From positions 16,335-80,334 of the forward strand of contig DJVT01000002.1 of NCBI GenBank assembly GCA_002441305.1: DNA of 64,000 bases. The letters run 5' to 3'. The notes below the pieces were generated by a model, which was not told where the DNA came from, made no database searches, and saw only the letters and a program-made list of their open reading frames with translations. Position numbers and translations under genes: made by a program. This document shows, piece by piece, positions 8,870 through 57,703 of this stretch. This DNA is from Candidatus Omnitrophica bacterium UBA6249 (lineage in GTDB: Bacteria > Omnitrophota > Gorgyraeia > Gygaellales > Profunditerraquicolaceae). Position 1 is the first letter of the stretch; each line of letters begins with the position of its first letter.

Positions 8870-8879
8870 CCTTTTCCCC

Positions 8880-11528: not shown

Positions 11529-11544
11529 CCCGTTTATAAACGGG
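11529..11544 (-). terminator. Weak hairpin after the fourth flp gene (possible partial terminator/attenuator)
   Basis: CCCGTT-TATA-AACGGG, a 6-bp stem immediately after the stop at 11549. The downstream T-tract is poor (AATATGTCTTTAT), so at best it is leaky. Confidence 0.3.
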
Positions 11545-11548
11545 GTCA

Positions 11549-11716: not shown

Positions 11717-11737
11717 CTCTCCCTCCTTATGAAAAAA

Positions 11738-11959
11738 TTATTCCGATCGGTAATAATTAAGCTCCGTCTGCCTCTGTTTAAGACAGGCGTTGGTCGAACG
11801 CATCAGATAAATCGTCATCGCGATCAACGCCGCACTAACAATAATAATAAGCATCGCATATTCTATAAACCCTTGCCCGGATGCTCGTCTATAAAATGCC
11901 ATTTTACCTGGACTCTTTATCCCCCTGTCTTCATCCATCAGCCGTACATAAGCCATCAT
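11738..11959 (-). CDS. flp: Flp-family pilin (73 aa, or 54 aa from internal ATG 11902)
   Basis: ...MAFYRRASGQGFIEYAMLIIIVSAALIAMTIYLMRSTNACLKQRQTELNYYRSE. ATG 11959 overlaps the upstream TGA (ATGATG coupling). The alternative start is 11902. Confidence 0.65.
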   Translation of the reverse strand: MMAYVRLMDEDRGIKSPGKMAFYRRASGQGFIEYAMLIIIVSAALIAMTIYLMRSTNACLKQRQTELNYYRSE

Positions 11960-12114
11960 TGCCCAAGACGTGCATTCATCGCCCTTATCACATAAGTGCT
12001 CATCGCCACTAAGGCCGTGCTTATAACAATAATCAGCATGGTATATTCCAGAAAACTCTGGCCTTGATTTCGTACCATTGCCATCGGCTTTAGAATTGAT
12101 TTTCTTACGGGCAT
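11956..12114 (-). CDS. flp: Flp-family pilin (52 aa)
   Basis: MPVRKSILKPMAMVRNQGQSFLEYTMLIIVISTALVAMSTYVIRAMNARLGQ. ATG 12114 has GAGAGG 6 nt upstream. The track start 12147 would overlap the preceding flp gene. Confidence 0.65.
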   Translation of the reverse strand: MPVRKSILKPMAMVRNQGQSFLEYTMLIIVISTALVAMSTYVIRAMNARLGQ

Positions 12115-12124
12115 ATGAAACCTC

Positions 12125-12280
12125 TCATTGATTGTACACGGTGTCATATATTACAGTCAATTGCGGATTTGCCACTGAGGCAGCCGCGACTATAACACCG
12201 ATAACCACAGCCAAAATTATTACATATTCCAAAGTACTTTGGCCGCACTTACAATATAGAGTACCTCTATTATTAAACAT
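12125..12280 (-). CDS. flp: Flp-family pilin (51 aa)
   Basis: Below the track cutoff. My translation: MFNNRGTLYCKCGQSTLEYVIILAVVIGVIVAAASVANPQLTVIYDTVYNQ. It has the G/QSTLEY motif. No Shine-Dalgarno sequence is present; see the promoter at 12289..12317. Confidence 0.6.
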   Translation of the reverse strand: MFNNRGTLYCKCGQSTLEYVIILAVVIGVIVAAASVANPQLTVIYDTVYNQ

Positions 12281-12288
12281 TCTAACTA

Positions 12289-12317
12289 AATATACCATTT
12301 AAGGATATAACAATCAA
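12289..12317 (-). promoter_or_regulatory. Candidate promoter for the flp/pilin gene string
   Basis: Minus strand TTGATT (12317..12312), 17 nt, TATATT (12294..12289). The -10 ends 8 nt before ATG 12280, so the predicted transcript would be leaderless or nearly so. Confidence 0.35.
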
Positions 12318-12330
12318 GGTTAATCCAGGG

Positions 12331-14235: not shown

Positions 14236-14263
14236 ACACTCTCCAGATTGGACATTTTTAATT

Positions 14264-14292
14264 ACTATACTGCCTATTCAGCAGGTTGTCAA
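14264..14292 (-). promoter_or_regulatory. Candidate sigma70-type promoter upstream of the HTH/coiled-coil gene
   Basis: Minus strand TTGACA (14292..14287), exactly 17 nt, TATAGT (14269..14264), ~30 nt upstream of ATG 14235. Confidence 0.45.
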
Positions 14293-14338
14293 GAAACCAT
14301 ATCTTCCAGACTAACAAAATTAGATATCTAACAGGCGG

Positions 14339-14683
14339 TTAAGATGAAAAAGAAAGGTTGTCGCCTTTTTGAGTGCATGTCAAGCTAATGGTTCCGGAAG
14401 GCAATTCAATCACTTTGGAAGAATTCCAGTATACGGGACTGAGTTTATTCGGGGATAGTTTATGGATAATATCTATTACTCGAAAAGCTTTATCTGCAAA
14501 AATTACATCTATCGGGAAACGCATAAAGAAAGTATGCACAGAAATACAGGGTTCCAGAATAAGCGCTTGCCCGGAAGAAAAAGTATTTTTCCCCAACAAC
14601 CCTTTAACTCTTTTTAAGAAAGTATCGGCTAAAATTACATCATCGGATAAAACGGTATTTTTTGTCCGGTTTATCAAACGCAT
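14339..14683 (-). CDS. DUF192 domain protein
   Basis: 114 aa. ADTFLKRVKGLLGK...GQALILEPCISVHTFFMRFPIDVIFADKAFRVIDI...VIELPSG matches the DUF192/COG1430 pattern. Confidence 0.7.
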   Translation of the reverse strand: MRLINRTKNTVLSDDVILADTFLKRVKGLLGKNTFSSGQALILEPCISVHTFFMRFPIDVIFADKAFRVIDIIHKLSPNKLSPVYWNSSKVIELPSGTISLTCTQKGDNLSFSS

Positions 14684-14693
14684 GGATATTCCC

Positions 14694-16853
14694 TTACGAT
14701 TTGACGGGTTTGAATATATCGTCGGAGATGGCTATTCCGCGGACGCGAATCTCATTAACAAAAGTAGGCTTGTACCCTGTAGGAGTAAAATACCCCAACA
14801 CTTTTCCCTGCGCATCAACACCTGTTTGTTTAAAAATAAAAATGTCGTTCAGGTTTATATGCATTTCGTCCTGCATCCCGGCCACTTCGGATACGCAAAG
14901 CACTTTCCTTGATCCGTCGGAGAGCCGGGCAGTATGCACAATTATATCCACGGCGGAAGAGACCATTTCGCGAATAGCCCTTGCCGGTAGCTCTATGCCG
15001 GACATCAGAATCATCGAATCCAGACGCGATAAAACATCTGCCGTAGAATTAGCGTGAATCGTGGTCATGGAACCGTCATGCCCGGTATTCATCGCCTGAA
15101 GCATATCCAAAGATTCGGTCCCGCGGCATTCTCCTACGATAATCCTGTCGGGACGCATACGCAAAGTGTTCCTAAAAAGGTCACGAATGGTCAACCCGCC
15201 TTTACCTTCTATGTTCGGCGGACGTGACTCCAGCCTCACCCAATGCCTTTGGTTCAACTTGAGCTCCGCGGCATCCTCAAGCGTAACAATCCTTTCCCCT
15301 TCCGGGATATACTCGGAAAGGGCATTTAAAACCGTAGTCTTGCCTGAACCCGTACCTCCCGACACAATCATATTCTTGCGGCACAACACGCAAGCCCTGA
15401 TAAAATCAGCCATGCCCTGGGTAAGCGCACCGAAATTAATCAAATCGCTTGTCTTGTATCTTTCCTTGCGGAATTTCCTGATAGTCAAGGTGGGCCCGGT
15501 AAGAGACAAGGGGGGGATAATTGCGTTTACGCGCGAACCGTCATTCAAACGGGCGTCCACCATGGGAACAGACTCATCGATACGCCGGCCTATGGGGGCA
15601 ATAATGCGCTCGATTATAGTCCTTACCTGTTCGTTGGAAATAAATTTTTTGCTGGTAAGCTCCAGTTTTCCGAAACGCTCCACATATACTTCATCCTTAT
15701 TATTGACCATTATATCCGTAACATCAGGATCGGCCAAAAGGTCCTCTATCGCCCCCAGCCCCAATGCCTCGTCGAGGATCTCTTTGATTAACTTCCTCCG
15801 CACCTCCTGAGAGGGGATAAAACTGCCTGCTTCTTCAAGCAGGAGGTTACTTACCACTACCTCCGCTTTTTTCTTAAGTTCTTCTCCCTTTTTATGGTCG
15901 CTAAAAACTTTCAGGTCTATCTTCTTTATATTCATACTCTCGAGAAGACGGCTGTGTATTCTTCGCTTGAGTATCAATATTTCATCCTTGTCTTCATTGA
16001 CATCCGGGTCAAGTACGGTCTCTCCTAACCCCTGCCCCTCCCAAAACTGAGCCGCCTTGCTGTCGGGTTCCTTCTTCAGCTTCAATTGATCTATATTCCT
16101 GCGTTCCACGAATACGGATTTATTCGAAATAAGAGTATTGGTTAAACCGGAAAAAGCCGAGGCGATCCTGGAGCGCGGAGAATCTATTACTACCGGAATC
16201 CCCTGATTAACCGCCTGGTTTACCAGCCTGCCTTCGGAAGGAATTTTTTCGATAATCTCGACCGGTAAATGCACGCGGATCTCCTGCCAGCTGATACTGG
16301 ACAGGGATTCCGCCCTATTCAATAGGAGTTGGATCATATTCAGGGGAAAATGCAAAAACTGCAAAGTATCCAAAGCCCATTTTGTCTGGTATATGGATAA
16401 GGCATCCGGGGTTACAATAAGCAGGATAAGGTTTGCCTGGTTGAGCACAGCGAGAAACAAATCACTGAAACTTTTCCCGGCGTCGACGATTATATAGTCG
16501 TAATCTTTATCCAACAAAGAAAATACCTCTGGTATCTTCTCCGGGTACAAATACCCCGATTGCTGAGGCTTAAGCACGCCCGCGATAAAATCGACTCCGT
16601 TAAATTTTGATTTGACGATAAAATTCTGTTTCTTGGTTAACTGAGGTTGTTTTTTCAAAAAGCTCATCAGATCCGCCATGCATACTTGCGGATCCACGCC
16701 AAGTATATGCGACATATCCCCTACAACCTGCGTATCCAGGTCAATGGCGCAAACGCGCTTTCCTTCTTTGGCCAAGGAAGCAGCCAGGTTAGCGGCGATT
16801 AAAGTCTTGCCTACTCCGCCTTTAGTGCTGAATATGACTATTACTTTTGCCAT
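14694..16853 (-). CDS. cpaF: Fusion of ParA/MinD-like ATPase (TadZ/CpaE-type) with CpaF/TadA secretion ATPase (719 aa)
   Basis: Residues 1-~255: MAKVIVIFSTKGGVGKTLIAANLAASLAKEGKRVCAIDLD (deviant Walker A). Residues ~330-719: T2SSE ATPase with Walker A SGGTGSGKTT, plus RPDRIIVGECRG and MNTGHDGSMTTIHAN. Confidence 0.85.
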   Translation of the reverse strand: MAKVIVIFSTKGGVGKTLIAANLAASLAKEGKRVCAIDLDTQVVGDMSHILGVDPQVCMADLMSFLKKQPQLTKKQNFIVKSKFNGVDFIAGVLKPQQSGYLYPEKIPEVFSLLDKDYDYIIVDAGKSFSDLFLAVLNQANLILLIVTPDALSIYQTKWALDTLQFLHFPLNMIQLLLNRAESLSSISWQEIRVHLPVEIIEKIPSEGRLVNQAVNQGIPVVIDSPRSRIASAFSGLTNTLISNKSVFVERRNIDQLKLKKEPDSKAAQFWEGQGLGETVLDPDVNEDKDEILILKRRIHSRLLESMNIKKIDLKVFSDHKKGEELKKKAEVVVSNLLLEEAGSFIPSQEVRRKLIKEILDEALGLGAIEDLLADPDVTDIMVNNKDEVYVERFGKLELTSKKFISNEQVRTIIERIIAPIGRRIDESVPMVDARLNDGSRVNAIIPPLSLTGPTLTIRKFRKERYKTSDLINFGALTQGMADFIRACVLCRKNMIVSGGTGSGKTTVLNALSEYIPEGERIVTLEDAAELKLNQRHWVRLESRPPNIEGKGGLTIRDLFRNTLRMRPDRIIVGECRGTESLDMLQAMNTGHDGSMTTIHANSTADVLSRLDSMILMSGIELPARAIREMVSSAVDIIVHTARLSDGSRKVLCVSEVAGMQDEMHINLNDIFIFKQTGVDAQGKVLGYFTPTGYKPTFVNEIRVRGIAISDDIFKPVKS

Positions 16854-16855
16854 TT

Positions 16856-18451
16856 TTATTCAAGTTGATAAATTATCGGGATATCCACCCACATCTCTTT
16901 CTTATTGACCTCCGGGGGGAACGGAGGATACGGCGAAATCTTCTGCGCCGCGCTTACCGCGTTATCGTCAAGCAAACGGTAATTGGAGGGTTCTTTAACT
17001 TTCAAATCCAACAGGTCTCCCTGGGCGGAAAGTTTAAGACTTAATTTTACCTTGCCTTGAAAACCGGCTTCTTTTGCTGCTTCCGGATAAGCAAGATTTT
17101 CCAAGACTTTACGCTGAATAATTTTGGCATACCTGGTAACCGGATCCTTGGCATCTTCTTCAGTAAAAACAGGAGTGCCGGATATAACAGGCTTTGTCTC
17201 CTGGAGCGCTTTATTCTGATCCATCACGTGAGGAGTCAAGGTAATAAAAAGTTCCGTATCGTCGGCCTTGGCAAGATCCGAATTCCACCCTTGAGATGAT
17301 GTCTTTTGCCTGAAAAACAAACCTAAAACAGGAATATCGGAAAGCCAGGGAACCCTCTTTAATTCTTCGGTAGACTTTTTCTTAATCAGCCCGCCGATCG
17401 CCATAGTCTGCCCGTCGTCGAGAAAAAGTTCGGTCGTCGCAGTACGCTTGGTCATTTTGTACGCAAGGGCATACGTAGTACTTACCACATCCCCCAGCTC
17501 GCTTACGGTAACGTCAAGATTAAGATGTACACGCCCGGAATCATTGATCAGGGGCCTGACGTTCAGAATAATCCCGTACTCTTTGTACTCAACAGAACCG
17601 TTGCTTGTCGCGCCTACAGAAGTAGAACCGCTTGTCCCGGGAGTAACCGTACCGCTCAAAACAGGGACCTCCCCTCCAACCACCAGCTTGGCCTCTTTTC
17701 CGCTCTGGCAGGAAACCCTGGGGCGGGAAAGAATACGCGCCTTGCCGTCTTTTATCAAGGCATCCAGTTTGAGGGTAAAAGCATCCCTGGTAACATTGAC
17801 CACATGAAACAGCTTACCCCAAGTGGTCCCGGCTTCGGAAATTCCAGGAGAGCCTACTTCGGTCAAATTCAGAGAGCTCGGCCAGGTAAACCCAAGGGTA
17901 TCCTGAGAGCCCCTGTTAAGCTCGATTACCTGGACATCTATCTCTATAACAGCTTCTTCCTCTTTAAGTTTTATCAAGTCTATAGTCTTATCCTTAAGAG
18001 CACCTAAAACGGTAGCGATACGCTCTCTGTCCGCGGCATTCTTGACAAAACCCAAGAGCACCACTTTTCCTCCGTCTTCGTCCGCGCTTGAATAGACATC
18101 CGGCAGATTTAATTTCTGTAAAGCTTTATCTATGCGCTCTTTTACTTCTAGCATATTTTCAGTGAATACTTTAAGGCGGTATGACTGCTCGCCAAAATCA
18201 TCCCAGATAACAAGCGTAGTTGTCCCTGCGGATTTGGGATTAACTGTCAAATCGTTTTTTGTAATATTGACCACGTCGGCAACCGAAGGATTTCCAATCG
18301 CTATTCTTTTTGGTGAATTTATGGCAATCACTTGCGGTTCGCCTAAATAGAGTTTCATCTCCTCATCAACGTCATCCGCTGCGCGCCCGCCCAGAGGAAA
18401 AAGGGATACAAAAGCACAAAATAATAACAGATTAAAAAATAACTTTCTCAT
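16856..18451 (-). CDS. cpaC: CpaC/RcpA-type secretin with C-terminal TonB-C-like domain (531 aa)
   Basis: Signal peptide, then pilus-N domain (LYLGEPQVIAINSPKRIAIGNPSVADVV...TTLVIWD), then secretin core (ILSRPRVSCQSGKEAKLVVGGEVP...VPWLSDIPVLGLFFR...ELFITLTPHV). The last ~85 aa, YPEAAKEAGFQGKVKLSLKLSAQGDLLDLKVKEPSNYRLLDDNAVSAAQKISPYPPFP, fit the TonB C-terminal domain pattern. Confidence 0.8.
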   Translation of the reverse strand: MRKLFFNLLLFCAFVSLFPLGGRAADDVDEEMKLYLGEPQVIAINSPKRIAIGNPSVADVVNITKNDLTVNPKSAGTTTLVIWDDFGEQSYRLKVFTENMLEVKERIDKALQKLNLPDVYSSADEDGGKVVLLGFVKNAADRERIATVLGALKDKTIDLIKLKEEEAVIEIDVQVIELNRGSQDTLGFTWPSSLNLTEVGSPGISEAGTTWGKLFHVVNVTRDAFTLKLDALIKDGKARILSRPRVSCQSGKEAKLVVGGEVPVLSGTVTPGTSGSTSVGATSNGSVEYKEYGIILNVRPLINDSGRVHLNLDVTVSELGDVVSTTYALAYKMTKRTATTELFLDDGQTMAIGGLIKKKSTEELKRVPWLSDIPVLGLFFRQKTSSQGWNSDLAKADDTELFITLTPHVMDQNKALQETKPVISGTPVFTEEDAKDPVTRYAKIIQRKVLENLAYPEAAKEAGFQGKVKLSLKLSAQGDLLDLKVKEPSNYRLLDDNAVSAAQKISPYPPFPPEVNKKEMWVDIPIIYQLE

Positions 18452-18512
18452 TTTTCTCCTTTTATCCGTTTATCCCGCGCAGAACCCTCACGCAGACAAA
18501 AGTGTCATATGC

Positions 18513-19433
18513 CTATTTAGGCAAAGATACCTGCTCCTTTTTCAAACCGCGCAGTACTTCCACATACTCCGTCGGCTCCGCGGGTACGGTCTCTATCGGT
18601 TTTTCTACCGCTTTTTCTGCATCCTGCTTCTGCGGCATAATATATTGGAATAAAGCCTCCCAGCTTGCGGGGGTAAGCGGTTCAATTTTGGCATCGGCGG
18701 GGGAACGCATAGTCAAACGCACCTTTCCCTGCTCCTGGACAAAAGCTATAAGGCTTGCCTCCTGTGGAGTAAGTGCTAAGGTAATCAAATTGCTTGTTCC
18801 CTTGGGAGCCTCTCCTTGCTTATCATACCTCCCGGAGGAAAGCTCAGGACCGCCTATATTTTGTCCTACGGCCAGAATTAAAACGTTTTGAAACAAAGGA
18901 ATAACCGCTACCTGACTTAACATTTTCCCATCCGGTCCTGGGACTGGAATTTGTATCGTGGCAAGTACATCAACATAATCCCCGGGCCTAACCATATGGG
19001 CCAAAGAAGACAGGTTATCTACAACAATAGATATAGCCCTTTTGCCCGCAGGAGTAACTCCGGATAAATTCCCTCCCCCGGACTGCCTTATACGCGTAAG
19101 CTTCGAGAGGCTTATCTGCTCTCCCTTGGAAATAGGCGCGACAGTAACCATCCCGGAAATCCTGTCCAAAGACGTAACCGCCTGCGGCTGAACGAATTTA
19201 TTCGGGACGATCGAGGTATCAAACATCTCCGGTTCAATAGCTGCCCCCTGGGGAATATCCTGTTTAGCCACCAGCACAGCGGTTTGGCTGGATCTCATAT
19301 TGGCAATCGCCGCCTTGGCTTTAACCTGCATAGCTTGCTGCTGCTGGTCAAGGTACATCTTGGTCATGGCAATAGCCATAACGCCTAACACTATGCCGCT
19401 GAGCAATATAAGCTTCTGCTTTTCGATTGCCAT
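18513..19433 (-). CDS. cpaB: Flp pilus assembly protein CpaB/RcpC
   Basis: 306 aa. N-terminal anchor LILLSGIVLGVMAIAMTKMYL, then SAF-like and RcpC-like regions. ATG shares one base with the upstream stop (TAATG). Confidence 0.8.
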   Translation of the reverse strand: MAIEKQKLILLSGIVLGVMAIAMTKMYLDQQQQAMQVKAKAAIANMRSSQTAVLVAKQDIPQGAAIEPEMFDTSIVPNKFVQPQAVTSLDRISGMVTVAPISKGEQISLSKLTRIRQSGGGNLSGVTPAGKRAISIVVDNLSSLAHMVRPGDYVDVLATIQIPVPGPDGKMLSQVAVIPLFQNVLILAVGQNIGGPELSSGRYDKQGEAPKGTSNLITLALTPQEASLIAFVQEQGKVRLTMRSPADAKIEPLTPASWEALFQYIMPQKQDAEKAVEKPIETVPAEPTEYVEVLRGLKKEQVSLPK

Positions 19434-33546: not shown

Positions 33547-34155
33547 TTATTTTATATGTCTCGATATGGCATTGAATACCCGGCCGGCTATAACTTTATA
33601 ACCGCGGGCGTTCGGATGAAAAAAATCGCTTTTCATCGATGGGTTGGTAATAATCTTATTAAGCACGACAGGAATGAATACGGCTTGTTTTTTCTCTGCC
33701 AGCCTTTTAAAGGCCTTTCTGTATTGTTTAAAGAACATCCCCGCGCTTATGTCCATTAAGGCGACCATTGCCCCGCGTTCCTGGATAAGGTCGATAATCC
33801 GGTCCAGGTTTTCTATGGTCGTTTCCTCGGGGATATTTTTCAGAAAGTCGTTCCCGCAGAATTCGACAATAACCAGCCTGGGATTCTTAGAAAGCACATC
33901 CTGCTCTAAACGTTCCAGGGCGGCAAAAGAAGTATCTCCGTCAACGCCCGCGTTAATTACCGGAGCTTTGAGCATCTTCTCCAGGACAGAAGGATAATCA
34001 TCCCCCCGGTTTACCCCGTATCCGAAAGTAATACTGTCTCCGAAACAAATAATATTGCCGTCTTTTTTCCCTGCGTTCCTGATTTCCTGCCTGGTGCACC
34101 CGGCCAAAATGAAGGCTGCGGCAACCAGCACAATCGTTTTATTAATTATTTTCAT
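33547..34155 (-). CDS. SGNH/GDSL-family hydrolase lipoprotein (TesA/arylesterase-like)
   Basis: 202 aa. Lipobox FILAGC. Block I ICFGDSITFGYG, block III EFCGND, block V FHPNARG. Confidence 0.8.
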   Translation of the reverse strand: MKIINKTIVLVAAAFILAGCTRQEIRNAGKKDGNIICFGDSITFGYGVNRGDDYPSVLEKMLKAPVINAGVDGDTSFAALERLEQDVLSKNPRLVIVEFCGNDFLKNIPEETTIENLDRIIDLIQERGAMVALMDISAGMFFKQYRKAFKRLAEKKQAVFIPVVLNKIITNPSMKSDFFHPNARGYKVIAGRVFNAISRHIK

Positions 34156-35224
34156 GTCTCAGCCTCAACTGTCCGCATGCGGCGTCGATATCGGCCCCTC
34201 TCCTTTTCCTCAAAGTAACATTGACCCCGGACTTTGCCAGGCATTCCTTAAAACATAACGCCTGCGCGGCTGAAGGAGGAATGATTTTCTTTCCGCTTAC
34301 GGGGTTTGCCGGAATCAGGTTGACCTTAGCCAGTCTCAGTCCGGACAACAGGATAGCCAGCTTCCGGGCGCAAGACAAATCCGAATTGAGCCCCTTGATC
34401 AAAATGTACTCGAAAGTTATCTGCCGGTTGGTGGCCTCGATATACTCATTGCAGCAAGGGATCAATTCCCCAAGCGGGTATTTACGGTTCACCGGCATAA
34501 TCTCCGTGCGCAACTTATCATCCGCAGCATGCAAAGAAACGGATAACTCCACCTGCAAATCCTCCTCTTTCAACTTATTGATCCCCGGAATAATCCCGCA
34601 AGTGGAAATAGTAATATGCCTGGCACCTATATTGAAGGCATCCGGAGAATTGATCATCCTGACAGCCTGTAATACATTGGCATAATTATCCAGCGGTTCT
34701 CCCGTGCCCATAAATACGACATTGTTCAGCCTTGCTTTATGCAGCTGGCTTTTCAATAACAGTATTTCATCCAGAATTTCACCGCATTTTAAATTACGCC
34801 TGAGACCTTTAACCCCGCTGGCGCAAAATCCGCAGGAAAACTTACATCCGGCCTGAGAGGAGATACAGGCGGTAACCCCGGAATAAGATCCGGCACAGGA
34901 CCTGCCAGAATCGCCCGGCAGACGCAAGGCCATAGGAATATTCACTCCTTCGACTAAGTTGCCGTCGTAAAGCTCAAAAAGCAATTTTTCGGTCCCGTCC
35001 GAAGACCTGCTCCCTGCGGATTTCTTGAGCCCCAAGATATAAAAATTACTATTAAGCTTCTCTCTAAGCGGCAGGGGAATATCGCTCATCTGGCTGAAAC
35101 TTAATGCCCCTTTTTGAAAAATCCAGGTAAATATCTGCTTGGCGCGGTATCCGGGCACTCCCCAAGACGCCAGCCTGTCTTTCAAGCCGCTTAAGCCGAT
35201 ATCCTTAACGTCCTCCATAATCAA
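34142..35224 (-). CDS. rlmN: 23S rRNA/tRNA (adenine-C2)-methyltransferase RlmN (radical SAM)
   Basis: 360 aa. N-terminus YRAKQIFTWIF, radical SAM cluster CKFSCGFCASG, GTGEPLDN, and a C-terminal ...DIDAACGQL motif. Confidence 0.85.
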   Translation of the reverse strand: MIMEDVKDIGLSGLKDRLASWGVPGYRAKQIFTWIFQKGALSFSQMSDIPLPLREKLNSNFYILGLKKSAGSRSSDGTEKLLFELYDGNLVEGVNIPMALRLPGDSGRSCAGSYSGVTACISSQAGCKFSCGFCASGVKGLRRNLKCGEILDEILLLKSQLHKARLNNVVFMGTGEPLDNYANVLQAVRMINSPDAFNIGARHITISTCGIIPGINKLKEEDLQVELSVSLHAADDKLRTEIMPVNRKYPLGELIPCCNEYIEATNRQITFEYILIKGLNSDLSCARKLAILLSGLRLAKVNLIPANPVSGKKIIPPSAAQALCFKECLAKSGVNVTLRKRRGADIDAACGQLRLRHENN

Positions 35225-38216: not shown

Positions 38217-39230
38217 TTAGACCTCTTTCGCGCAAGTTCTAATTTTTACCTCTTTAAACAAAGCAAATAACCTGGTAAAAGGCACATACCATTTAGAAAG
38301 CTGCCCCAATTGGCCGCTCAATTTCATCTTGCCCTGCGTAACCGCCACAAAACAATCCAATCTGCCCAAGAAAACCTGCTCCCAGACATCCGCAGGCGCC
38401 GATATCACAAACGGAGCCTGCGCGTCAAAATCAAGCTTGATGATTTTGCCTTTTTCAAAATTGAACTTATACGCTTGTTCGCATCCGTCCATCTTTACAG
38501 CGAGGCTAACCGTTAAATCCAGCTCTCTCCCCTTCTCCCCAATAAAAGAATCTTTATTAACCAGATCCACGATCGCCTCAATATGCTCCCGGCTGAACAT
38601 GGCATAAGAAACCTGGCTCTTCTTCAAATCGTCCCTTAAAGCTGTATCCAATCCGTCTAAAATATTCTTATCGAACAAGCGCGCCAATGCCGCGCTCTTT
38701 ACCGCCTCTTCCAGCGCCTCGGTAACATCAAGCGCATCAACAAACTTGTCTGCGATCGCTATTACTCCATGATTCCTCAATACGACCAGATTACTGCTTT
38801 TCAAAGCTGCAATCACCGGGCCCGGAACGGTTACCGTAGGAGTATCCTGGTCTATTACCGGGATATCCCCCAAATAGAATTTAGTCTCAAAGCTCATCGC
38901 CTTGAGTGTCTTGACAACGGCAAAATATCCATTAATCAACGGAGGGTGGCAATGCAGGATAACCTTAGAAGGGAAATTTCTGTAGATCAGGCTATGCAAA
39001 GGCAACTCGGAACTGGGTTTTATATCCGGCATAAGGCTGTCTGCGGAAAGATCAACCTTGATTACGTCTTTTTCCGTCAACCTGCCTAATGACGAACCGC
39101 TGGAGGTAATCAGTATATGTTTTTCGCTCACCCTAACACTTAAATTTCCTGACTTGGCTACCGCCAACCCCGCTAAATGCAATTGCTTGCCTGTTTCTAT
39201 AATCTCTCTGACCGCTTCTTGTTCCAGCAC
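38217..39230 (-). CDS. Class II aldolase/adducin-family domain fused to C-terminal SCP2-like domain
   Basis: 337 aa. N-terminal ~200 aa are aldolase_II-like (AKSGNLSVRV, ILHCHPP, LRNHGVIA). The C-terminal ~110 aa, ...FVISAPADVWEQVFLGRLDCFVAVTQGKMKLSGQLGQLSKW..., fit an SCP2 sterol-carrier fold pattern. Confidence 0.7.
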   Translation of the reverse strand: MLEQEAVREIIETGKQLHLAGLAVAKSGNLSVRVSEKHILITSSGSSLGRLTEKDVIKVDLSADSLMPDIKPSSELPLHSLIYRNFPSKVILHCHPPLINGYFAVVKTLKAMSFETKFYLGDIPVIDQDTPTVTVPGPVIAALKSSNLVVLRNHGVIAIADKFVDALDVTEALEEAVKSAALARLFDKNILDGLDTALRDDLKKSQVSYAMFSREHIEAIVDLVNKDSFIGEKGRELDLTVSLAVKMDGCEQAYKFNFEKGKIIKLDFDAQAPFVISAPADVWEQVFLGRLDCFVAVTQGKMKLSGQLGQLSKWYVPFTRLFALFKEVKIRTCAKEV

Positions 39231-40925: not shown

Positions 40926-41255
40926 CTAAGCACGATACATAATTACACTGGCCTTCTCAAGGGTAACCAGGCCTTCTTTGACCATTGCGTCCAAATGGGG
41001 TATAAACTTGCCTATTTTGTCCTCACTGTCCACAATCTCGACAACGACAGGCAAGTCCTCAGACAATCTTAACAGTTTGGCAGTATGCATATGGCTCTTG
41101 CGCCCGAACCCCATAAACCCCTTCCATGCCGTAGCTCCTGCCAAACCCATCCTTTTTGCCAAGATTACTATTTCTTCATAAAGCGGCTTACCGTTCCACT
41201 TATCCGTTTCTCCGATAAAAATCCTTAAAAGCTTGCCGTCTTCGGGAATTTTCAT
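40926..41255 (-). CDS. DUF190 domain protein (CrcB-associated)
   Basis: 109 aa. LLRIFIGETDKWNGKPLYEEIVILAKRMGLAGATAWKGFMGFG is the DUF190 pattern. Overlaps the crcB stop. Confidence 0.75.
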   Translation of the reverse strand: MKIPEDGKLLRIFIGETDKWNGKPLYEEIVILAKRMGLAGATAWKGFMGFGRKSHMHTAKLLRLSEDLPVVVEIVDSEDKIGKFIPHLDAMVKEGLVTLEKASVIMYRA

Positions 41256-41626
41256 ATTATTTCTCCTAAATAAGATCCTGCTCTGAATAAGATCAGTCCA
41301 AAAACCAGGCTGGCAAAAAGATTCAGGGAAGCGCGCATAATCTGGCCGCTTCTTAGCAGGGTGTCGGTCTCGAATATAAATGTGGAAAAAGTGGTAAAGG
41401 CGCCGCAGAAGCCGATCATTAAAAGCATTCTCGCATCGGGGCTGAGCACGAACTTCTTCTCAGATAAAGAAGCAAGTAACCCCAGGATAAAACACCCGCA
41501 AACATTAACAGCCATTGTCCCATAAGGAAAAGAGGTCCCGGCAACTCTATAAACAAACCCCGACAATAAATATCTGGCTGCCGTTCCCGCTGCGCCACCA
41601 ATGACTAAATTGATGAATTTTGTCAT
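41252..41626 (-). CDS. crcB: Fluoride ion channel CrcB/FluC
   Basis: 124 aa, four TM helices. GGAAGTAARY...GFCGAFTTFSTF is typical of CrcB. Confidence 0.9.
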   Translation of the reverse strand: MTKFINLVIGGAAGTAARYLLSGFVYRVAGTSFPYGTMAVNVCGCFILGLLASLSEKKFVLSPDARMLLMIGFCGAFTTFSTFIFETDTLLRSGQIMRASLNLFASLVFGLILFRAGSYLGEII

Positions 41627-47127: not shown

Positions 47128-48591
47128 CTATATCTGTACTTCCCCCCCTGCTGCAGCTGCCTCCCATTTGCCAACCCCGTCCATTACGTCCTTGAAACAA
47201 AGTTTGGCGAGCGGGTCGAAATTGCTTTCCATTATACGGTTTATCCTGCCGGGCTTGGAAAAGAACTCGCGCATACACCATGAACCAAGCCTGCCCAAAT
47301 CCTCTGTGGTCAGATAATCGGTAGGTATTACCGGATGCAGGAAATCCCACGTACTGAAATCAACCTTCTTGGGATCGACCCAGTTCTTCTTGAGGGATAT
47401 CCTCCACATCGGGGAGTTCGGCGCCGGGGTAACATAACCTATCCACAACACATCCGGGTCAGCCTGGTCGGCAAATTCAAACCTCTGTTTTATGATTTCT
47501 TCGGTGTCGTAATCAAACCCCATCATAATGTCAGCTACGACTGCGATATCGTTCTTGCGCAGGATCTCAATCGTCTTTTTGATCTGCTCTATAGTCGTGC
47601 CCTTGGCTATCTTTTTCAACTCTGCCTGAGTGGTAACCTCTATGCCGAATACCCCCATGATCAAACCGACTTCTTTCATCAAAGGAACCACCGATTCGCA
47701 ATTTACCCAATCCACCGCTCTGCCCAAAGAAAACCATTTGGTCGGAATCCCTTTTTCTTTCTTAAGCTCGCAGAATCTCTTTACGCGTTCCGGATCAACG
47801 TTAAAATTGTCATCTTGTATGCCTACGACTTGTACGCCATATTTCTTGTGCAAAAGCTCCAGCTCCTCAATAACGCGTTCGGGGGATTTAGCGCGCCACT
47901 TCAAGAAATCCGAAGGGTGGCGCGGATCAAATTGGTCCCATTCGTAACAAAATGTGCAGGCTGAAGGACAGCCGCGCGAAGTGACCATGTCCACAAAAGG
48001 CTTCCAGTAAGTATGCCCGACATATTTATCCATGGGAAACAGGTCGTAAGCGGGCAAAGGAAGTTTATCCAGATCGGTCATTAACGGCTTATGCGGCCCC
48101 ATGACAATCTCCCCGTCTACGCGGACAGTCACCCCTCCGATATCTTTCAGGTTCTTCTTCTTATCTATCGCCTCAATCAGGTCGGCAAATGATTCCTCTT
48201 CGCCCATAACTACAAAATCCACCGCGGGATTCTCTTCGAGAGTCGGTACGGGCATAGCTGAATACCATAAGCCGCCCAGAATTATTTTTACCGAAGGAAG
48301 CTCTTTCTTGATTCTCTGGGAAGCCTCACGGAAATGACGCAATACCCCATACCCTCCGTAACCGTGTATCTGTTCTCCCATAACTACTATATCCGGATTC
48401 TTGGCTTTCACCTGTTCGACAAGCTGATCCATAGGGATCTCCAGGGCCCTCCCGTCTATGACTGAAACGTCCGAATATCCTCGTTCGCGTATATAGGCTG
48501 CCCAATGCGCATATAGCTGGTTCGGCGATCTATGTATACCGTGAGTTGCCCAGGCTCCTACCTTAGGCATTACGAATAATATCTTCATCAC
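47128..48591 (-). CDS. B12-binding-domain radical SAM enzyme (class B radical SAM)
   Basis: 487 aa. N-terminal cobalamin-binding-like Rossmann region (KILFVMP...DIVVMGEQ...KIILGG) plus radical SAM cluster SRGCPSACTFC (CX3CX2C). Confidence 0.85.
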   Translation of the reverse strand: MMKILFVMPKVGAWATHGIHRSPNQLYAHWAAYIRERGYSDVSVIDGRALEIPMDQLVEQVKAKNPDIVVMGEQIHGYGGYGVLRHFREASQRIKKELPSVKIILGGLWYSAMPVPTLEENPAVDFVVMGEEESFADLIEAIDKKKNLKDIGGVTVRVDGEIVMGPHKPLMTDLDKLPLPAYDLFPMDKYVGHTYWKPFVDMVTSRGCPSACTFCYEWDQFDPRHPSDFLKWRAKSPERVIEELELLHKKYGVQVVGIQDDNFNVDPERVKRFCELKKEKGIPTKWFSLGRAVDWVNCESVVPLMKEVGLIMGVFGIEVTTQAELKKIAKGTTIEQIKKTIEILRKNDIAVVADIMMGFDYDTEEIIKQRFEFADQADPDVLWIGYVTPAPNSPMWRISLKKNWVDPKKVDFSTWDFLHPVIPTDYLTTEDLGRLGSWCMREFFSKPGRINRIMESNFDPLAKLCFKDVMDGVGKWEAAAAGGEVQI

Positions 48592-53113: not shown

Positions 53114-53142
53114 ATTTTATTATCTATGCGCCCCATTGTCAA
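53114..53142 (-). promoter_or_regulatory. Strong candidate sigma70-type promoter of the PKS operon
   Basis: Minus strand TTGACA (53142..53137), exactly 17 nt, TAAAAT (53119..53114), in the 115-nt gap after padR. Confidence 0.5.
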
Positions 53143-53157: not shown

Positions 53158-53673
53158 TCAAAGTTCTTTTAACAGTTTGTTCAAGAAATCCCCTTCCGCC
53201 TGAAGCAGGCACAGGTTATGCCGCAATATGCGGGATAAAGAAGTCGATTTCCTGATTTTCCCGGAGTTCAGTGATTTTTGTATACTGGAAGAAATCTTGT
53301 TCAATATGGTCAGTCTGGCAGCCAGCCTGCGGCGGCTTAAGGCAGGTTTAAGATAATCCAGAAAATATAAACTTAGGTCAAGGGTGAACTGGGGGCGCTT
53401 GAAATCAAGAAGGCTTTTATTCAGCAGCTCTTCGAAACGCTCCCTGCCCTTATGGGTCAGGCAATAGACAAGTTTCTCCGGCCTGTTGCCTTTTTTATCA
53501 ATATGCTTATCAAGCAGGCCCTTGCTTTCCAGCACTCTTAAAGGATAGTATATGGATTTTAGATCTACCCCGGCGAACAAGGAAAGGATTTGTTTTATTT
53601 TAACCTTAATCTCGTAACCGTGCTTGGGGCTTTGACGCAATAAACCTAATAATATGAATTCCTGTTCGATCAT
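53158..53673 (-). CDS. PadR-family transcriptional regulator
   Basis: 171 aa. LLGLLRQSPKHGYEIKVKIKQILSLFAGVDLKSIYYPLRVLESKGLL is a PadR winged-helix pattern. ATG overlaps the accA stop. Confidence 0.85.
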   Translation of the reverse strand: MIEQEFILLGLLRQSPKHGYEIKVKIKQILSLFAGVDLKSIYYPLRVLESKGLLDKHIDKKGNRPEKLVYCLTHKGRERFEELLNKSLLDFKRPQFTLDLSLYFLDYLKPALSRRRLAARLTILNKISSSIQKSLNSGKIRKSTSLSRILRHNLCLLQAEGDFLNKLLKEL

Positions 53674-54617
53674 CCGGTAGCGCCTATGGCCCTGAATTTC
53701 TTATACCTTAAATCGAGCAACTCTTCTTTAGAAAAAGACTCCAATTCCTTGAAATTCCTCAAGAGGGTATCTTTCACATTCTGGGCCACTTTCCCGGGAT
53801 CCCTGTGCGCCCCCCCTAAAGGCTCGGGAACAACCTCATCGATGATCCCCATCTTTAAAAGATCCGGCCCGGTAAGCTTCAACACCTCCGCCGCACGGGA
53901 AGCCTTTGTCCCGTCTTTCCAAAGGATCGCTGCGCATCCTTCCGGGGAGATTACCGAATAATACGCATTTTCCAATACTGCCACGCGGTCTGCCACTCCT
54001 ACCCCCAAAGCCCCCCCTGACCCGCCTTCTCCGATTACTACCGCCACAACCGGAACCTTGATACGCATCATTTCCCTAAGATTAAGCGCGATCGCATGAG
54101 ACTGTCCGCGCTCCTCCGCCCCGATGCCGGGGTAGGCCCCGGGAGTGTCTATAAAGACGGATATGGGGAGATTGAACTCTTCGGCCAGCTGCATAACGCG
54201 CAACGCCTTACGGTAACCCTCCGGGTGAGCGCACCCAAAGTTACGTTTCAGGTTCTCTTTCGTATCCCTGCCTTTTTGGTGCCCCATAACCACAACTTTT
54301 TTCTTGTTAAGTTTTGCAACCCCGCAAACCATAGCTTTATCGTCGCTAAAAAGCCTGTCTCCGTGCAATTCCACAAAATCCGTCATAATCATATTTATGT
54401 AATCCAGGGTGTACGGTCTCATGGGATGACGGGCCAATTGCACCTTTTGCCAGGGCGTAAGATTGGCATAGACATCCTTTCTCAACTGCTCGAGTTTTTC
54501 CTCGAGCTTCTTTACCTCGGAAGATAAATCAATCTTCTTCTCGGAGATAAAGGACCTGAGATCCTGTATTTTTTTCTCTAATTCAATAATGGGTTTTTCG
54601 AAATCCAGTCCTGCCAT
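53670..54617 (-). CDS. accA: Acetyl-CoA carboxylase carboxyltransferase subunit alpha
   Basis: 315 aa. ...RHPMRPYTLDYI..., VVIGEGGSGGALG, SVISPEGCAAILW. Confidence 0.9.
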   Translation of the reverse strand: MAGLDFEKPIIELEKKIQDLRSFISEKKIDLSSEVKKLEEKLEQLRKDVYANLTPWQKVQLARHPMRPYTLDYINMIMTDFVELHGDRLFSDDKAMVCGVAKLNKKKVVVMGHQKGRDTKENLKRNFGCAHPEGYRKALRVMQLAEEFNLPISVFIDTPGAYPGIGAEERGQSHAIALNLREMMRIKVPVVAVVIGEGGSGGALGVGVADRVAVLENAYYSVISPEGCAAILWKDGTKASRAAEVLKLTGPDLLKMGIIDEVVPEPLGGAHRDPGKVAQNVKDTLLRNFKELESFSKEELLDLRYKKFRAIGATG

Positions 54618-56173: not shown

Positions 56174-57703
56174 ATGATATCAAGAGTAACCAGCTTTGGA
56201 CTGCTGGGGTTAGACGCATACCCGGTAGAAATAGAAGTCGATGTAACAAAAGGGCTGCCGGCGGTCAGCCTGGTAGGGATGACCGATACAGCTGTGAAAG
56301 AAAGCAAGGAAAGGGTCCGTTCGGCAATCAAAAACTCCGGATTCAAATGGCCGGCGGGTAGAATAACCATAAATCTTGCTCCTTCCGATATCAAAAAGGA
56401 AGGGGCGTGTTTCGACCTCCCCATAGCCCTCGGGATACTTATTTCAAGCGGGCAGATCAATCCCGAGCGTATTCACGAATACGTCTTCTTGGGAGAGCTA
56501 TCCCTGGATGGCAGGATCAAGCCAATACACGGCATTCTGGCCATAGGGATGGGAATGACAAGCCGGCGCTTCAACAATCTTGTCTTGCCGGAGGAAAACG
56601 CGAATGAATCCGGGATAATCCCGGATCTCGACACATGGCCACAAAGGACCTTGAAGGATGTGATACAATTCCTGAGCGAAAGCCCTGCAAAAGAACCATA
56701 CCGTTTCACCCCGGGAGCGACAACCGCAAAAAGAAAAAACTATGATATGGATTTCTCCGAAGTAAAAGGTCAATATTTCGCAAAAAGGGCTCTTGAGGTG
56801 GCAGTTGCCGGGGGACATAATATAGCCATGATCGGCCCTCCCGGAAGCGGAAAAACAATGCTTGCAAAAAGAATACCCACAATCATGCCGGATCTTTCTC
56901 TCGACGAGATACTCGAGATAACCAGAATCCATTCTGTGGCCGGAACGATGATAAACAAAACCGGACTTCTGGACACAAGGCCTTTCCGCTCACCACACCA
57001 CAGTATTTCCCATACCGCCCTTACCGGAGGAGGATCTATTCCTAAACCCGGAGAGATAAGCCTGGCGCACTACGGGGTGCTCTTTCTGGATGAACTGCCG
57101 GAATTCAACCGCAACACGCTTGAAGCGCTAAGGCAGCCGTTGGAAGACAATTTTATTTGCATAGGCCGTATCAAACATACGGTGGTCTTTCCTTGCTGCT
57201 TTATTTTAGTGGCCGCCCTTAATCCCTGCCCCTGCGGAAATTATTTTACTCCCGGTAAAATTTGCCACTGCAGCCCCACCAAAATAAAGAATTACCTGGG
57301 GAAGATATCCGGTCCGCTGCTCGATAGGATAGATATACATATAGAAGTGCCGCAGTTAAAATACCGCGAAATGTCGGAAAACAGGGAAGAGGAATCCTCC
57401 GAAAAGATCAGGGGCCGCGTAGAAAAGGCGCGGGAGCTGCAAAAGAAGAGGTTCAGGAGTTATCCAAAGGTACTGCATAACGCCCAAATGAACGGAAAAA
57501 TAATCAAGGAGTGCTGTCTGCTGGACGAAGAAGCCTGGAGGATACTACGTATGGCTATCGCGGAGCTGGGGCTTTCAGCGAGGGCTCATGATAAAATATT
57601 AAAAATAAGCAGGACTGTCGCTGACTTATCCGGCTCAGAACAGATACTCGCTGAACATATTTCCGAAGCGGCGCAATACCGGAACATGGACAGGTTCTTT
57701 TAG
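56174..57703 (+). CDS. comM: YifB/ComM-family Mg-chelatase-like ATPase
   Basis: 509 aa. Lon-like N-terminal domain, Walker A GPPGSGKT, GVLFLDELPEF, and C-terminal ...ARAHDKILKISRTVADL. RBS AAAAGGAGGGG. Confidence 0.9.
   Translation: MISRVTSFGLLGLDAYPVEIEVDVTKGLPAVSLVGMTDTAVKESKERVRSAIKNSGFKWPAGRITINLAPSDIKKEGACFDLPIALGILISSGQINPERIHEYVFLGELSLDGRIKPIHGILAIGMGMTSRRFNNLVLPEENANESGIIPDLDTWPQRTLKDVIQFLSESPAKEPYRFTPGATTAKRKNYDMDFSEVKGQYFAKRALEVAVAGGHNIAMIGPPGSGKTMLAKRIPTIMPDLSLDEILEITRIHSVAGTMINKTGLLDTRPFRSPHHSISHTALTGGGSIPKPGEISLAHYGVLFLDELPEFNRNTLEALRQPLEDNFICIGRIKHTVVFPCCFILVAALNPCPCGNYFTPGKICHCSPTKIKNYLGKISGPLLDRIDIHIEVPQLKYREMSENREEESSEKIRGRVEKARELQKKRFRSYPKVLHNAQMNGKIIKECCLLDEEAWRILRMAIAELGLSARAHDKILKISRTVADLSGSEQILAEHISEAAQYRNMDRFF

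Follow-up and report, generated by a model that had tools for sequence, protein, structure and literature searches.

A class B-type radical SAM protein linked to type II polyketide synthase genes and to a dihydroxyacetone phosphate shunt-like module in Candidatus Omnitrophota

Several described systems resemble parts of the gene cluster reported here, which lies around a predicted radical S-adenosylmethionine (SAM) gene in a 64-kb stretch of DNA (the window; contig DJVT01000002.1, positions 16,335 to 80,334) from Candidatus Omnitrophica bacterium UBA6249. The closest architecture is that of anammox Cluster I (KustE3603-3608), in which a FabF heterodimer resembling a ketosynthase (KS) and chain length factor (CLF) pair, one partner being a catalytically dead KS paralogue, is encoded in one conserved cluster with a dedicated acyl carrier protein (ACP), amxACP, and a cobalamin radical SAM protein; the anammox hosts are, like the Omnitrophota, anaerobic members of the Planctomycetes-Verrucomicrobia-Chlamydiae (PVC) group. 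Aromatic type II polyketide synthases (PKSs) are represented by the Ant system of Photorhabdus and by the minimal PKSs for actinorhodin and tetracenomycin, and in the coelulatin pathway the HemN-like radical SAM protein CoeI methylates an anthraquinone; a radical SAM enzyme thereby tailors a type II aromatic polyketide, and the carbon concerned is beyond the reach of ordinary methyltransferases (PMC9714029). An earlier reading of the window from its letters (the first-pass annotation) had started from the premise that methylation in type II PKS pathways is the work of ordinary SAM methyltransferases, to which CoeI is an exception. The class B methylases TokK/ThnK and CysS act on pantetheinyl or carrier-linked substrates, and BchE, the anaerobic Mg-protoporphyrin IX monomethyl ester oxidative cyclase, stands for O2-independent chemistry in place of an oxygenase. 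The 5'-deoxyadenosine released by radical SAM enzymes can be disposed of by an established route of phosphorylase, isomerase and class II aldolase, the dihydroxyacetone phosphate (DHAP) shunt (PMC6079011), and in adenosylhopane (HpnH/HpnG) and futalosine (MqnE/MqnB) synthesis a radical SAM enzyme is followed by an enzyme of the PNP_UDP_1 family on the way to a hydrophobic product.

Across the loci compared here, one radical SAM protein (rSAM) is the element common to a PKS module and a DHAP-shunt-like module. The preferred reading, to which a probability of about 0.45 is assigned, is that rSAM would carry out a cobalamin- and radical-dependent tailoring step on an aromatic type II polyketide, with dedicated processing of the resulting 5'-deoxyadenosine. 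For this phylum, the literature search returned only catalogue listings of Omnitrophica KS-CLF pairs (PMC10132072) and unexplained "ladderane" or "ladderane-like" biosynthetic gene cluster calls in Omnitrophota metagenome-assembled genomes (MAGs) (PMC9902471). Neither the rSAM clade nor its link to a DHAP-shunt-like module was described there, and the same holds for class B enzymes in aromatic type II PKS pathways. The search also gave no paper joining BchE, polyketide, radical SAM and ketosynthase, no radical SAM link to anthrone oxidation in anaerobes, no discussion of the PKS of Velamenicoccus, nothing informative on the TIGR04076 family, and no reported product or cultured producer.

The open reading frame (ORF) of rSAM extends over positions 47128..48591 of the minus strand, starts with GTG and encodes 487 amino acids (aa). 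A second start codon, the ATG at 48588, follows directly after the GTG and is preceded by a GGGAGGGAG box; it yields 486 aa, which is the length of almost all of the 830 homologues with an E value of 1e-10 or lower, so that 47128..48588 is the likely coding sequence. Both domains called in the first-pass annotation, a B12-binding-like domain and a radical SAM domain with a CPSACTFC motif, were found with Pfam: PF02310 covers residues 31-134 with 43.8 bits (E 2.7e-11), above its gathering score of 32.1, and PF04055 covers residues 202-373 (E 6.9e-22, 78.8 bits). The cluster motif SRGCPSACTFC was unchanged in 81 of 86 related loci, and the [4Fe-4S] cysteines C207-x3-C211-x2-C214 were invariant across a 100-sequence alignment. 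Since rSAM also retains every N-terminal position conserved to at least 90% in 100 class B-like sequences (P8, A30, D45, K94, G105, G106, D124, G129, E130, E132, and G152), its B12 domain is not degenerate, a possibility that the first-pass annotation had named as speaking against its own proposal. Residues specific to the clade are W217, D221, and R223 just past the cysteine motif, a G71...G79 loop, and R369, H418, and R448 elsewhere. By its domains and motifs, rSAM is a member of the class B (B12-binding-domain) radical SAM superfamily and would bind cobalamin. No cobalamin genes were found within the 64-kb window, and an Rfam scan gave no cobalamin or SAM riboswitch near the cluster; the only matches, to a c-di-GMP riboswitch and a tRNA, lie in other parts of the window.

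The AlphaFold (AF2) model of rSAM has a mean predicted local distance difference test (pLDDT) value of 93.3 and was matched by Foldseek to AprD4, MgmA, TokK, CysS, TsrM, and OxsB at template-modelling (TM) scores of 0.64-0.75, or 0.64-0.72 for the last five. The titles of the PDB entries for TokK and CysS describe crystal structures with pantetheinylated substrates; carrier-linked substrates therefore have a precedent, and TokK/ThnK and CysS show that class B chemistry can be done on thioester-tethered intermediates. The likeness to these methylases (TM 0.67-0.69) concerns the Rossmann B12 domain and the radical SAM barrel, whereas sequence identity is 15-17% and the methylases are larger, with about 625-665 residues and extra C-terminal domains, and belong to beta-lactam and cystobactamid pathways. 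CoeI belongs to another radical SAM class: it is a HemN-like class C enzyme with two SAM and no B12 domain, and it comes from an aerobic actinobacterial pathway with no linked nucleoside module.

All curated families that came near to rSAM were rejected as assignments, because the scores remained far below their cut-offs. The best one was BchE (TIGR02026; 213.2 bits against 481.35, residues 4-432), followed by HpnJ (TIGR03471; 145.5 against 577.6), while the methylase equivalogs ApyD (122.6/750), PhpK (111.8/600), HpnR (100.9/650), and KedN5 (72.7/700) and the ladderane-type family TIGR04072 (67.7/360) scored lower. The class B assignment of the first-pass annotation was upheld; the nearest curated families, however, are the non-methylating BchE and HpnJ and not methylases. 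BchE shares with rSAM the architecture of a B12 domain and a radical SAM domain and the idea of an O2-independent oxygenase substitute; in the window, however, no (bacterio)chlorophyll biosynthesis genes were found, the sole Mg_chelatase match being a ComM/ChlI-like AAA protein (56174-57703), so that the substrate must differ. Hopanoid genes were not seen in the window either.

Among 1.8 billion cluster representatives, 40,492 relatives of rSAM were found at an E value of 0.001 or lower, of which a handful exceeded 35% identity. The impression of an isolated family, gained from a search of 50% representatives, was dropped after later searches, with a 44%-identical relative as the starting point, had revealed a broad clade occurring in several gene contexts. 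Its members share 37-65% identity, compared to about 30% with generic class B proteins, and judged from these sequences rSAM belongs to a distinct clade of class B-type proteins of its own. In three giant proteins (P0128-P0130; 2096-2331 aa), class B-like radical SAM stretches are repeated four times in tandem, and each stretch is 27-28% identical to rSAM.

The genes around rSAM (Table 1) encode a KS-alpha with an intact triad, an adjacent KS paralogue devoid of the active-site cysteine, a discrete ACP, and an aromatase/cyclase, and thus the set of a type II PKS, as the first-pass annotation had proposed. Among PDB sequences, the KS scored best with 6smo_B (374 bits) and the actinorhodin KS 1tqy_A (363 bits), compared to at most 351 bits for FabF proteins and 270 bits for 9s5h_B. 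We take 6smo to be the Photorhabdus AntD/E complex; 9s5h is presumably the anammox heterodimer. The paralogue is regarded as CLF-like because it has Arg in place of the catalytic Cys and Asp and Asn in place of the two His, substitutions kept in every related locus, and it scores about equally with FabFs and with the actinorhodin CLF. Where actinobacterial CLFs carry the canonical Gln, at the former active-site Cys, the CLF of the window has Arg, as do all of the 75 related CLFs that were scored. The CLF gene ends 27 nucleotides (nt) before the GTG or 30 nt before the ATG of rSAM and the ACP gene follows after 46 nt, which agrees with the neighbours and spacings given in the first-pass annotation. 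In a phmmer search against the PDB, the SRPBCC protein matched TcmN (2rez, E 2.2e-24) and WhiE (3tvr, E 6e-24), and the PF04199 protein had only remote relatives there, isatin hydrolases.

With the KS scores, the TcmN/WhiE-type SRPBCC protein, and the PF04199 cyclase, short-chain dehydrogenase/reductase (SDR), and amidohydrolase_2 genes, an aromatic polyketide is the most reasonable product class on these sequences. The likeness to the Ant, actinorhodin, and tetracenomycin systems lies in the KS and in the aromatase/cyclase; the KR-like SDR, the cyclase, and the AMP-ligase of the Omnitrophota set presumably also have counterparts in the Ant gene set. Differences from these systems are the Arg instead of Gln in the CLF, the additional rSAM, PanE-like, TIGR04076, and DUF2621-like genes, the anaerobic uncultivated hosts, and the lack of oxygenases, no oxygenase family having been found among the cluster proteins scanned with Pfam. 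Promoter and terminator scans of the region gave counts not above those of shuffled sequence, and only the top promoter-like site was well placed.

When each species was represented by one genome, 207 of the genomes screened contained rSAM relatives. The closest homologues are 72-86% identical, and those with a name are nearly all from Candidatus Omnitrophota MAGs. Synteny was evaluated in the best 80 of the 207 genomes, all labelled Omnitrophota or evidently mislabelled, and the gene order was read as far as each contig extended. It was the same in 80 of 80 loci: (YkuD-accA-PadR)-h92-PanE/ApbA-like-TIGR04076-KS-CLF-rSAM-ACP-PF04199 cyclase-SRPBCC-(MFS)-SDR-(CBM11-like)-h137-amidohydrolase_2-(CrcB-DUF190)-PNP_UDP_1-IF-2B, where h92 and h137 are the proteins of 92 and 137 aa in Table 1. 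In 59 of the 63 loci with room upstream, the CLF gene ends less than 200 nt before rSAM, and in the remaining 4 loci both KS and CLF likewise lie on the upstream side. The co-occurrence with KS/CLF pairs, which the first-pass annotation had suggested as a check, is therefore complete in these 63 genome loci, and it holds for 33 of 54 metagenome loci. Median identities were 86% for rSAM, 81% for KS, 79% for CLF, and 77.5% for accA, making rSAM the most conserved gene of the cluster; since the loci had been picked by rSAM similarity, only this comparison between genes is meaningful. The rSAM gene is under strong purifying selection, and the cluster appears to be conserved vertically in Omnitrophota. 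With synteny in at least 80 species-level Omnitrophota genomes, it is not a sporadic secondary-metabolite island, and the slower evolution of rSAM compared to KS or accA suggests that the product is important to these ultra-small, uncultivated anaerobes. Omnitrophota possess no aerobic terminal oxidases and are apparently fermentative (bioRxiv 10.64898/2026.06.07.730766).

Downstream of the PKS genes, a phosphorylase, an IF-2B-type isomerase, and a class II aldolase are clustered, which is the gene set of the DHAP shunt, and this clustering is conserved; the module adjoins the PKS genes or interleaves with them. The three-step logic is that of MtnP or DrdK, MtnA/DrdI, and Ald2/DrdA in 5-deoxyribose disposal (PMC6079011): the isomerase passes the cut-off of TIGR00524, and the aldolase model resembles the Bacillus thuringiensis disposal aldolase DrdA (6btg, Foldseek E 3.8e-12). 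The best equivalog of the phosphorylase was uridine phosphorylase (107 bits against 280), with weak matches to HpnG (50.7 bits), futalosine hydrolase (26.5 bits), and MTAN. The likeness to the HpnH/HpnG and MqnE/MqnB pairs, to which the hopanoid enzyme HpnJ as second-best curated family of rSAM may be added, involves matches that are all below their cut-offs, and these pairs, unlike the module, do not continue with an isomerase, an aldolase, and an aldehyde dehydrogenase (ALDH).

Compared to the DHAP shunt, the module has an aldolase with a fused lipid-binding domain, an added ALDH and acyl-CoA ligase, and a tie to one rSAM and often to PKS or lipid-export genes. The ALDH is always present in the module and the fatty-acyl/aryl-type ligase usually. 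The additional C-terminal domain of the aldolase comprises about 130 aa and forms a confident alpha/beta domain in the AlphaFold model. Its Pfam match to SCP2 is weak in the window; the match becomes clearer in many of the homologues and throughout the other lineages, and a profile of the domain found Thermus SCP2 (E 2e-4) among PDB sequences, 9 of the 11 matches being SCP2-fold proteins. Because the top 50 Foldseek matches of the whole model are all aldolases, the SCP2 assignment rests on Pfam, the profile search, and the AlphaFold domain. The fusion occurs in every lineage with the module, for instance at 5932-6915 of locus L083, 12281-13270 of L092, 13528-14508 of L093, and 13536-14525 of L095. 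The acyl-CoA ligase gene is immediately followed by a second radical SAM gene, rlmN (34142-35224, minus strand; TIGR00048, 362 bits against 290), which is probably a housekeeping gene.

The position of rSAM varied in the wider clade. In type A loci (the window, L001-L080, and L091) it is located between CLF and ACP, and in a variant of this type (L125, L127, L128, and L148) after the SDR gene. In type B loci (L096, L089, copy 1 of L088, L122, L136, L159, L160, and L164) the order PadR-ligase-PNP-IF2B-IF2B'-aldolase-ALDH-rSAM-h92-ApbA-...-KS-CLF-ACP-cyclases places rSAM at the exact junction of the two modules, and in L127 and L128 the modules are interleaved (ligase-PNP-h92-ApbA-T4076-KS-CLF-ACP-Cyc-SRPBCC-SDR-rSAM-amidohydrolase-IF2B-aldolase-ALDH). 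In type C1 loci (Ca. Velamenicoccus archaeovorus CP019384, L100-L103, and L116), rSAM follows amidohydrolase_2 and closes the PKS cluster, and the DHAP-like module is absent within 10 kb. The linkage of rSAM to PKS genes thus persists through rearrangement across lineages. The statement of the first-pass annotation that rSAM is embedded between CLF and ACP holds for the lineage of the window, but in others the orthologous or paralogous gene is found before h92-ApbA, after the SDR gene, or after the amidohydrolase gene; because of this variation, its position is weak evidence for an action on ACP-bound intermediates.

Types C2 and D are without a PKS, and rSAM heads a PNP-IF2B-IF2B'-aldolase/SCP2-ALDH operon. 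L083, L084, and L092 contain in addition a methyltransferase, a ligase, a CBM11-like protein, MMPL, and DUF1329, and in L092 stops and starts overlap all the way from the methyltransferase gene to the ALDH gene. A locus of Ca. Methanoperedenaceae (L093; LR991655.1, 7658-21461) has no PKS and adds MMPL, LolA-like, DUF1329, DUF1302, and two ligases. In a Deferribacterota MAG (L095; JAXHVM010000006.1, 10001-15958) the bare six-gene operon rSAM-PNP-IF2B-x-aldolase/SCP2-ALDH stands between unrelated flanks. The rSAM proteins of L093 and L095 are 78% identical, which implies that the operon has been transferred horizontally, as a unit, between the two domains. Of the 54 metagenome loci of at least 7 kb evaluated for context, the 33 with the PKS module include 16 that also have the DHAP-like module, 4 have the DHAP-like module alone, and 17, from other branches of the clade, have neither. 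The context given in the first-pass annotation was incomplete in these respects, as it had missed the DHAP-shunt-like module, the PKS-less relatives, and the relatives with neither module.

Some further contexts were noted. In L165-L172, L175, and L176, a more distant branch from soil and other metagenomes that is 48-51% identical to P0123, the conserved order is rSAM-SDR-FAD_binding_4 oxidase-TENA/PQQC-like-O-methyltransferase. The contigs of P0123 and P0127 themselves are too short to show their gene contexts. One branch (L112, 9989-15058) lies beside cytochrome c assembly genes (ResB), NrdD/NrdG, and a small second rSAM, and another (L115, 7702-11235) beside TetR, NikR, and CbiM metal-uptake genes; within reach of these two loci, neither module was present. 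In L088, a divergent Omnitrophota MAG, two paralogous rSAM genes (10001-11446, P0124, and 1-1288) flank one PKS cluster, before h92 and after amidohydrolase_2, and between cyclase and aromatase/cyclase, where the window has no gene, there is one for a protein of 440 aa for which no Pfam family is recorded. A 479-aa gene between CLF and ACP in L096 is unrelated to rSAM, had no Pfam match, and was judged an insertion. The MMPL, LolA-like, DUF1329, and DUF1302 genes that flank the archaeal copy in L093 are of kinds typically associated with the Gram-negative envelope.

Table 1. Features of the rSAM region in the window, by coordinate
Feature	Position	Strand	Basis and remarks
AMP-forming acyl-CoA ligase, fatty-acyl/aryl type, 502 aa	35221..36729	-	found with the module in several arrangements
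Non-acylating NAD(P)-dependent aldehyde dehydrogenase (ALDH), 495 aa	36729..38216	-	accompanies the aldolase in every lineage examined
Class II aldolase (residues 1-190) with C-terminal SCP2-like lipid-binding domain (205-330)	38217..39230	-	Pfam, profile search, AlphaFold
MtnA-like (IF-2B family) ribose-1-phosphate isomerase, 307 aa	39232..40155	-	TIGR00524, 200.4 bits against cut-off 185.85
PNP_UDP_1 nucleoside phosphorylase/nucleosidase, 249 aa	40152..40901	-	Pfam; no equivalog reached
Amidohydrolase_2 protein, 303 aa	41635..42546	-	member of the metal-dependent ACMSD/LigW-type (de)carboxylase/hydrolase superfamily
Conserved helical protein (h137), 137 aa	42546..42959	-	no family match
Secreted/lipoprotein-like CBM_11-like beta-sandwich protein, 205 aa	43019..43636	-	presence variable; also adjoins PKS-less module in L092
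SDR, putative ketoreductase, 258 aa	43667..44443	-	Pfam, synteny
Major facilitator superfamily (MFS) transporter, 373 aa	44453..45574	-	Pfam; presence in cluster variable
SRPBCC mono-domain aromatase/cyclase, TcmN/WhiE type, 146 aa	45571..46011	-	weak Pfam; phmmer against PDB
PF04199 "putative cyclase", 272 aa	46045..46863	-	Pfam E 3.2e-29; HxGTHxD motif; syntenic in related loci
ACP, 78 aa	46845..47081	-	PP-binding E 7.9e-12; GVDSTEM phosphopantetheine serine motif
Class B-type rSAM protein	47128..48588	-	Pfam, motif, homologue length, AlphaFold model
CLF-like KS paralogue, 409 aa	48619..49848	-	Cys to Arg, His to Asp, His to Asn; stop/start overlap with KS gene
Ketosynthase alpha (KS), 420 aa	49848..51110	-	Cys-His-His intact: STGCTAG, NAHGSST, MIGHPLA
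TIGR04076 protein, tandem-duplicated, 208 aa	51140..51766	-	DUF4440/SnoaL-like protein in its place in one lineage
PanE/ApbA-like NAD(P)H ketoreductase, 337 aa	51748..52761	-	Pfam, synteny
DUF2621-like small protein (h92), 92 aa	52764..53042	-	directly downstream of rSAM in type B arrangements
Promoter-like site TTGACA-17-TAAAAT	53114..53142	-	consensus match 11/12; region's best; in PadR-h92 gap; putative operon start
PadR-family regulator	53158..53673	-	syntenic upstream of cluster

To interpret these arrangements, the possible reactions have to be considered. In the preferred tailoring reading, the [4Fe-4S] cluster of rSAM would cleave SAM reductively, and the 5'-deoxyadenosyl radical would take a hydrogen from a non-nucleophilic carbon of the polyketide, which is probably still bound to the ACP or freshly released. 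Cobalamin would then hand over the new group, for which a methyl group from methylcobalamin is the single most likely candidate. Almost as likely would be a BchE-like, O2-independent oxygenation or cyclisation in replacement of the missing oxygenases, because of the affinity to BchE and HpnJ and the absence of oxygenases. One 5'-deoxyadenosine would be set free per turnover, and the phosphorylase, MtnA-like isomerase, aldolase, ALDH, and ligase may convert it into DHAP and an acyl (acetyl) thioester, thereby removing an inhibitor and possibly feeding the PKS. The remaining parts of such a pathway would be the KS, the Arg-type CLF, the ACP, the TcmN-type aromatase/cyclase, the PF04199 cyclase, the SDR, amidohydrolase_2, the PanE-like reductase, and the DUF2621-like and TIGR04076 proteins.

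Several points weigh against this tailoring reading. Carbons of a poly-beta-keto chain are normally methylated by ordinary SAM methyltransferases. AprD4, the top single PDB match of rSAM by sequence and by fold, is a diol dehydratase that possesses a B12-type domain and is not known to use cobalamin, and in the relatives from Methanoperedenaceae and Deferribacterota the precomputed B12-binding Pfam match is weak or faint. The position of rSAM relative to the ACP gene is not conserved across lineages. The PKS-less relatives, 37-48% identical, head operons for phosphorylase, isomerase, aldolase-SCP2, and ALDH, which would be odd for the salvage of a by-product, and neither an SCP2 domain nor a fatty-acyl/aryl ligase in place of an acetyl-CoA synthetase is needed for the disposal of 5-deoxyribulose-1-phosphate and acetaldehyde.

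These last observations would be accounted for if rSAM did not abstract a hydrogen but added the 5'-deoxyadenosyl radical to a hydrophobic acceptor R, by analogy to HpnH on diploptene and MqnE on its enol ether, which is regarded as unlikely. The PNP_UDP_1 protein would remove adenine by phosphorolysis in the manner of HpnG or MqnB, the MtnA-like isomerase would form a 5-substituted ribulose-1-phosphate, the SCP2-aldolase would cleave it to DHAP and R-CH2-CHO, and the ALDH would oxidise the aldehyde to R-CH2-COOH, an acid that after activation by the ligase could be the starter of the KS/CLF or, in loci without a PKS, a lipid exported via MMPL, DUF1329, and DUF1302. The outcome may be called a "SAM-ribose C2 homologation", yielding R-CH2-CO-thioester and DHAP, and its use for priming an O2-independent PKS that makes an alkyl-aromatic, possibly quinone-like lipid appears doubtful at present. 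The same low expectation applies to a variant in which rSAM would elaborate C5' of the deoxynucleoside in another way, and to the export of the acid by MMPL/DUF1329/DUF1302 in Methanoperedenaceae, Deferribacterota, and others. The self-contained operon in L095 with its unrelated flanks, the same set with MMPL, LolA-like, DUF1329, DUF1302, and ligase genes in Methanoperedenaceae, the mobility of the whole unit suggested by the 78% identity of the two rSAM proteins, the overlapping genes of L092, the SCP2 fusion in every lineage, the fatty-acyl/aryl-like ligase, the interleaving in L127 and L128, and the junction position in type B loci all agree with such an adenosylation. On the other hand, the acceptor R cannot be named, several lineages combine rSAM and PKS with no module within 10 kb and other branches have neither, SCP2 domains can be non-lipid or purely structural, and rSAM keeps the full N-terminal consensus of class B proteins. 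To our knowledge, the adenosylating radical SAM enzymes HpnH and MqnE have no B12 domain. The gene set is, moreover, fully explained as a DHAP shunt for 5'-deoxyadenosine (PMC6079011).

Even less probable is a role of rSAM in nucleoside or methionine salvage, where it would modify a 5'-deoxynucleoside (5'-deoxyadenosine, methylthioadenosine, or S-adenosylhomocysteine) or its sugar phosphate instead of a polyketide, so that the DHAP-shunt-like enzymes could recycle carbon or sulfur anaerobically; the proximity to the PKS would then reflect only supply of acetyl or propionyl starters or hitch-hiking in an operon. The class B protein OxsB, which is among the structural matches of rSAM and acts on a nucleotide sugar, would be a precedent, rSAM does head PKS-less operons, and one report describes DHAP-shunt islands as mobile and as permitting growth on 5'-deoxynucleosides (PMC10986504). 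Against this stand the location of rSAM inside the PKS operon in the subclade of the window, about 6 kb from the phosphorylase gene, its rank as the most conserved gene of the PKS cluster, and its occurrence with a PKS and without the module in Ca. Velamenicoccus archaeovorus, and SCP2 domains and lipid exporters are ill-suited to small hydrophilic substrates. A role of the module in salvage alone is opposed by the PKS-less operons with rSAM at their head, the fused SCP2 domain, the type of ligase, and the lipid exporters, all of which fit an adenosylation. Least probable is a ladderane-like or other aliphatic membrane lipid in place of an aromatic polyketide, for which the KS/CLF-like pair, the ACP, and rSAM would build a fatty acyl chain and cyclise or cross-link it, in line with the proposal for anammox Cluster I, the putative ladderane lipid cluster. 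The core parts match anammox Cluster I (bioRxiv 10.64898/2026.05.19.726425), "ladderane" calls exist for Omnitrophota MAGs (PMC9902471), and MMPL, DUF1329, and SCP2 hint at a lipid-like product. The affiliation of both phyla to the PVC group points the same way. However, rSAM is of another radical SAM family than the anammox protein, as its TIGR04072 score shows, the KS has aromatic PKS KSs as its best matches, and the Omnitrophota cluster has the PF04199 cyclase, the SDR, the amidohydrolase, and an aromatase/cyclase of the TcmN/WhiE type (E 2e-24), with neither FabZ nor a phytoene-desaturase homologue found in it.

Under the tailoring reading, the rSAM clade points to an oxygen-free polyketide chemistry, and solving its reaction would reveal by what means aromatic polyketides can be tailored in anaerobes when oxygenases are absent. 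The link to the phosphorylase/isomerase/aldolase-SCP2/ALDH/ligase module, which has been exchanged between bacteria and an archaeon, would mean either a dedicated recycling of 5'-deoxyadenosine for an rSAM working at high flux or a new way to generate acyl starters from the ribose of SAM. With its shared core of KS/CLF-like pair, ACP, and B12 radical SAM protein, the Omnitrophota cluster may also be used as a comparison case for the anammox ladderane cluster.

Two flanking gene groups belong to the surroundings of the cluster. An accA gene for the carboxyltransferase alpha subunit of acetyl-CoA carboxylase (53670-54617, minus strand) directly precedes padR, an arrangement shared by 24 loci, and could supply malonyl-CoA to the PKS; alternatively, this synteny is coincidental. 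The fluoride-resistance pair CrcB and DUF190 (40926-41626, minus strand) lies between amidohydrolase_2 and the phosphorylase gene; apart from the window, only about 10 of the 80 genome loci contain it, so that it is probably not part of the pathway.

Elsewhere in the window, a c-di-GMP-I-GGC riboswitch was found by Rfam at 3567-3657 (minus strand; 69 bits, E 3e-14) beside a Tad/Flp-like pilus locus (4499-19433, minus strand). This locus contains several large ORFs that had no Pfam match, for example 7160-8989 and 12331-14235, and unusual fusions, namely a CpaF-type T2SSE ATPase with an N-terminal ParA/MinD-like domain (14694-16853) and a secretin with a C-terminal TonB_C domain (16856-18451).

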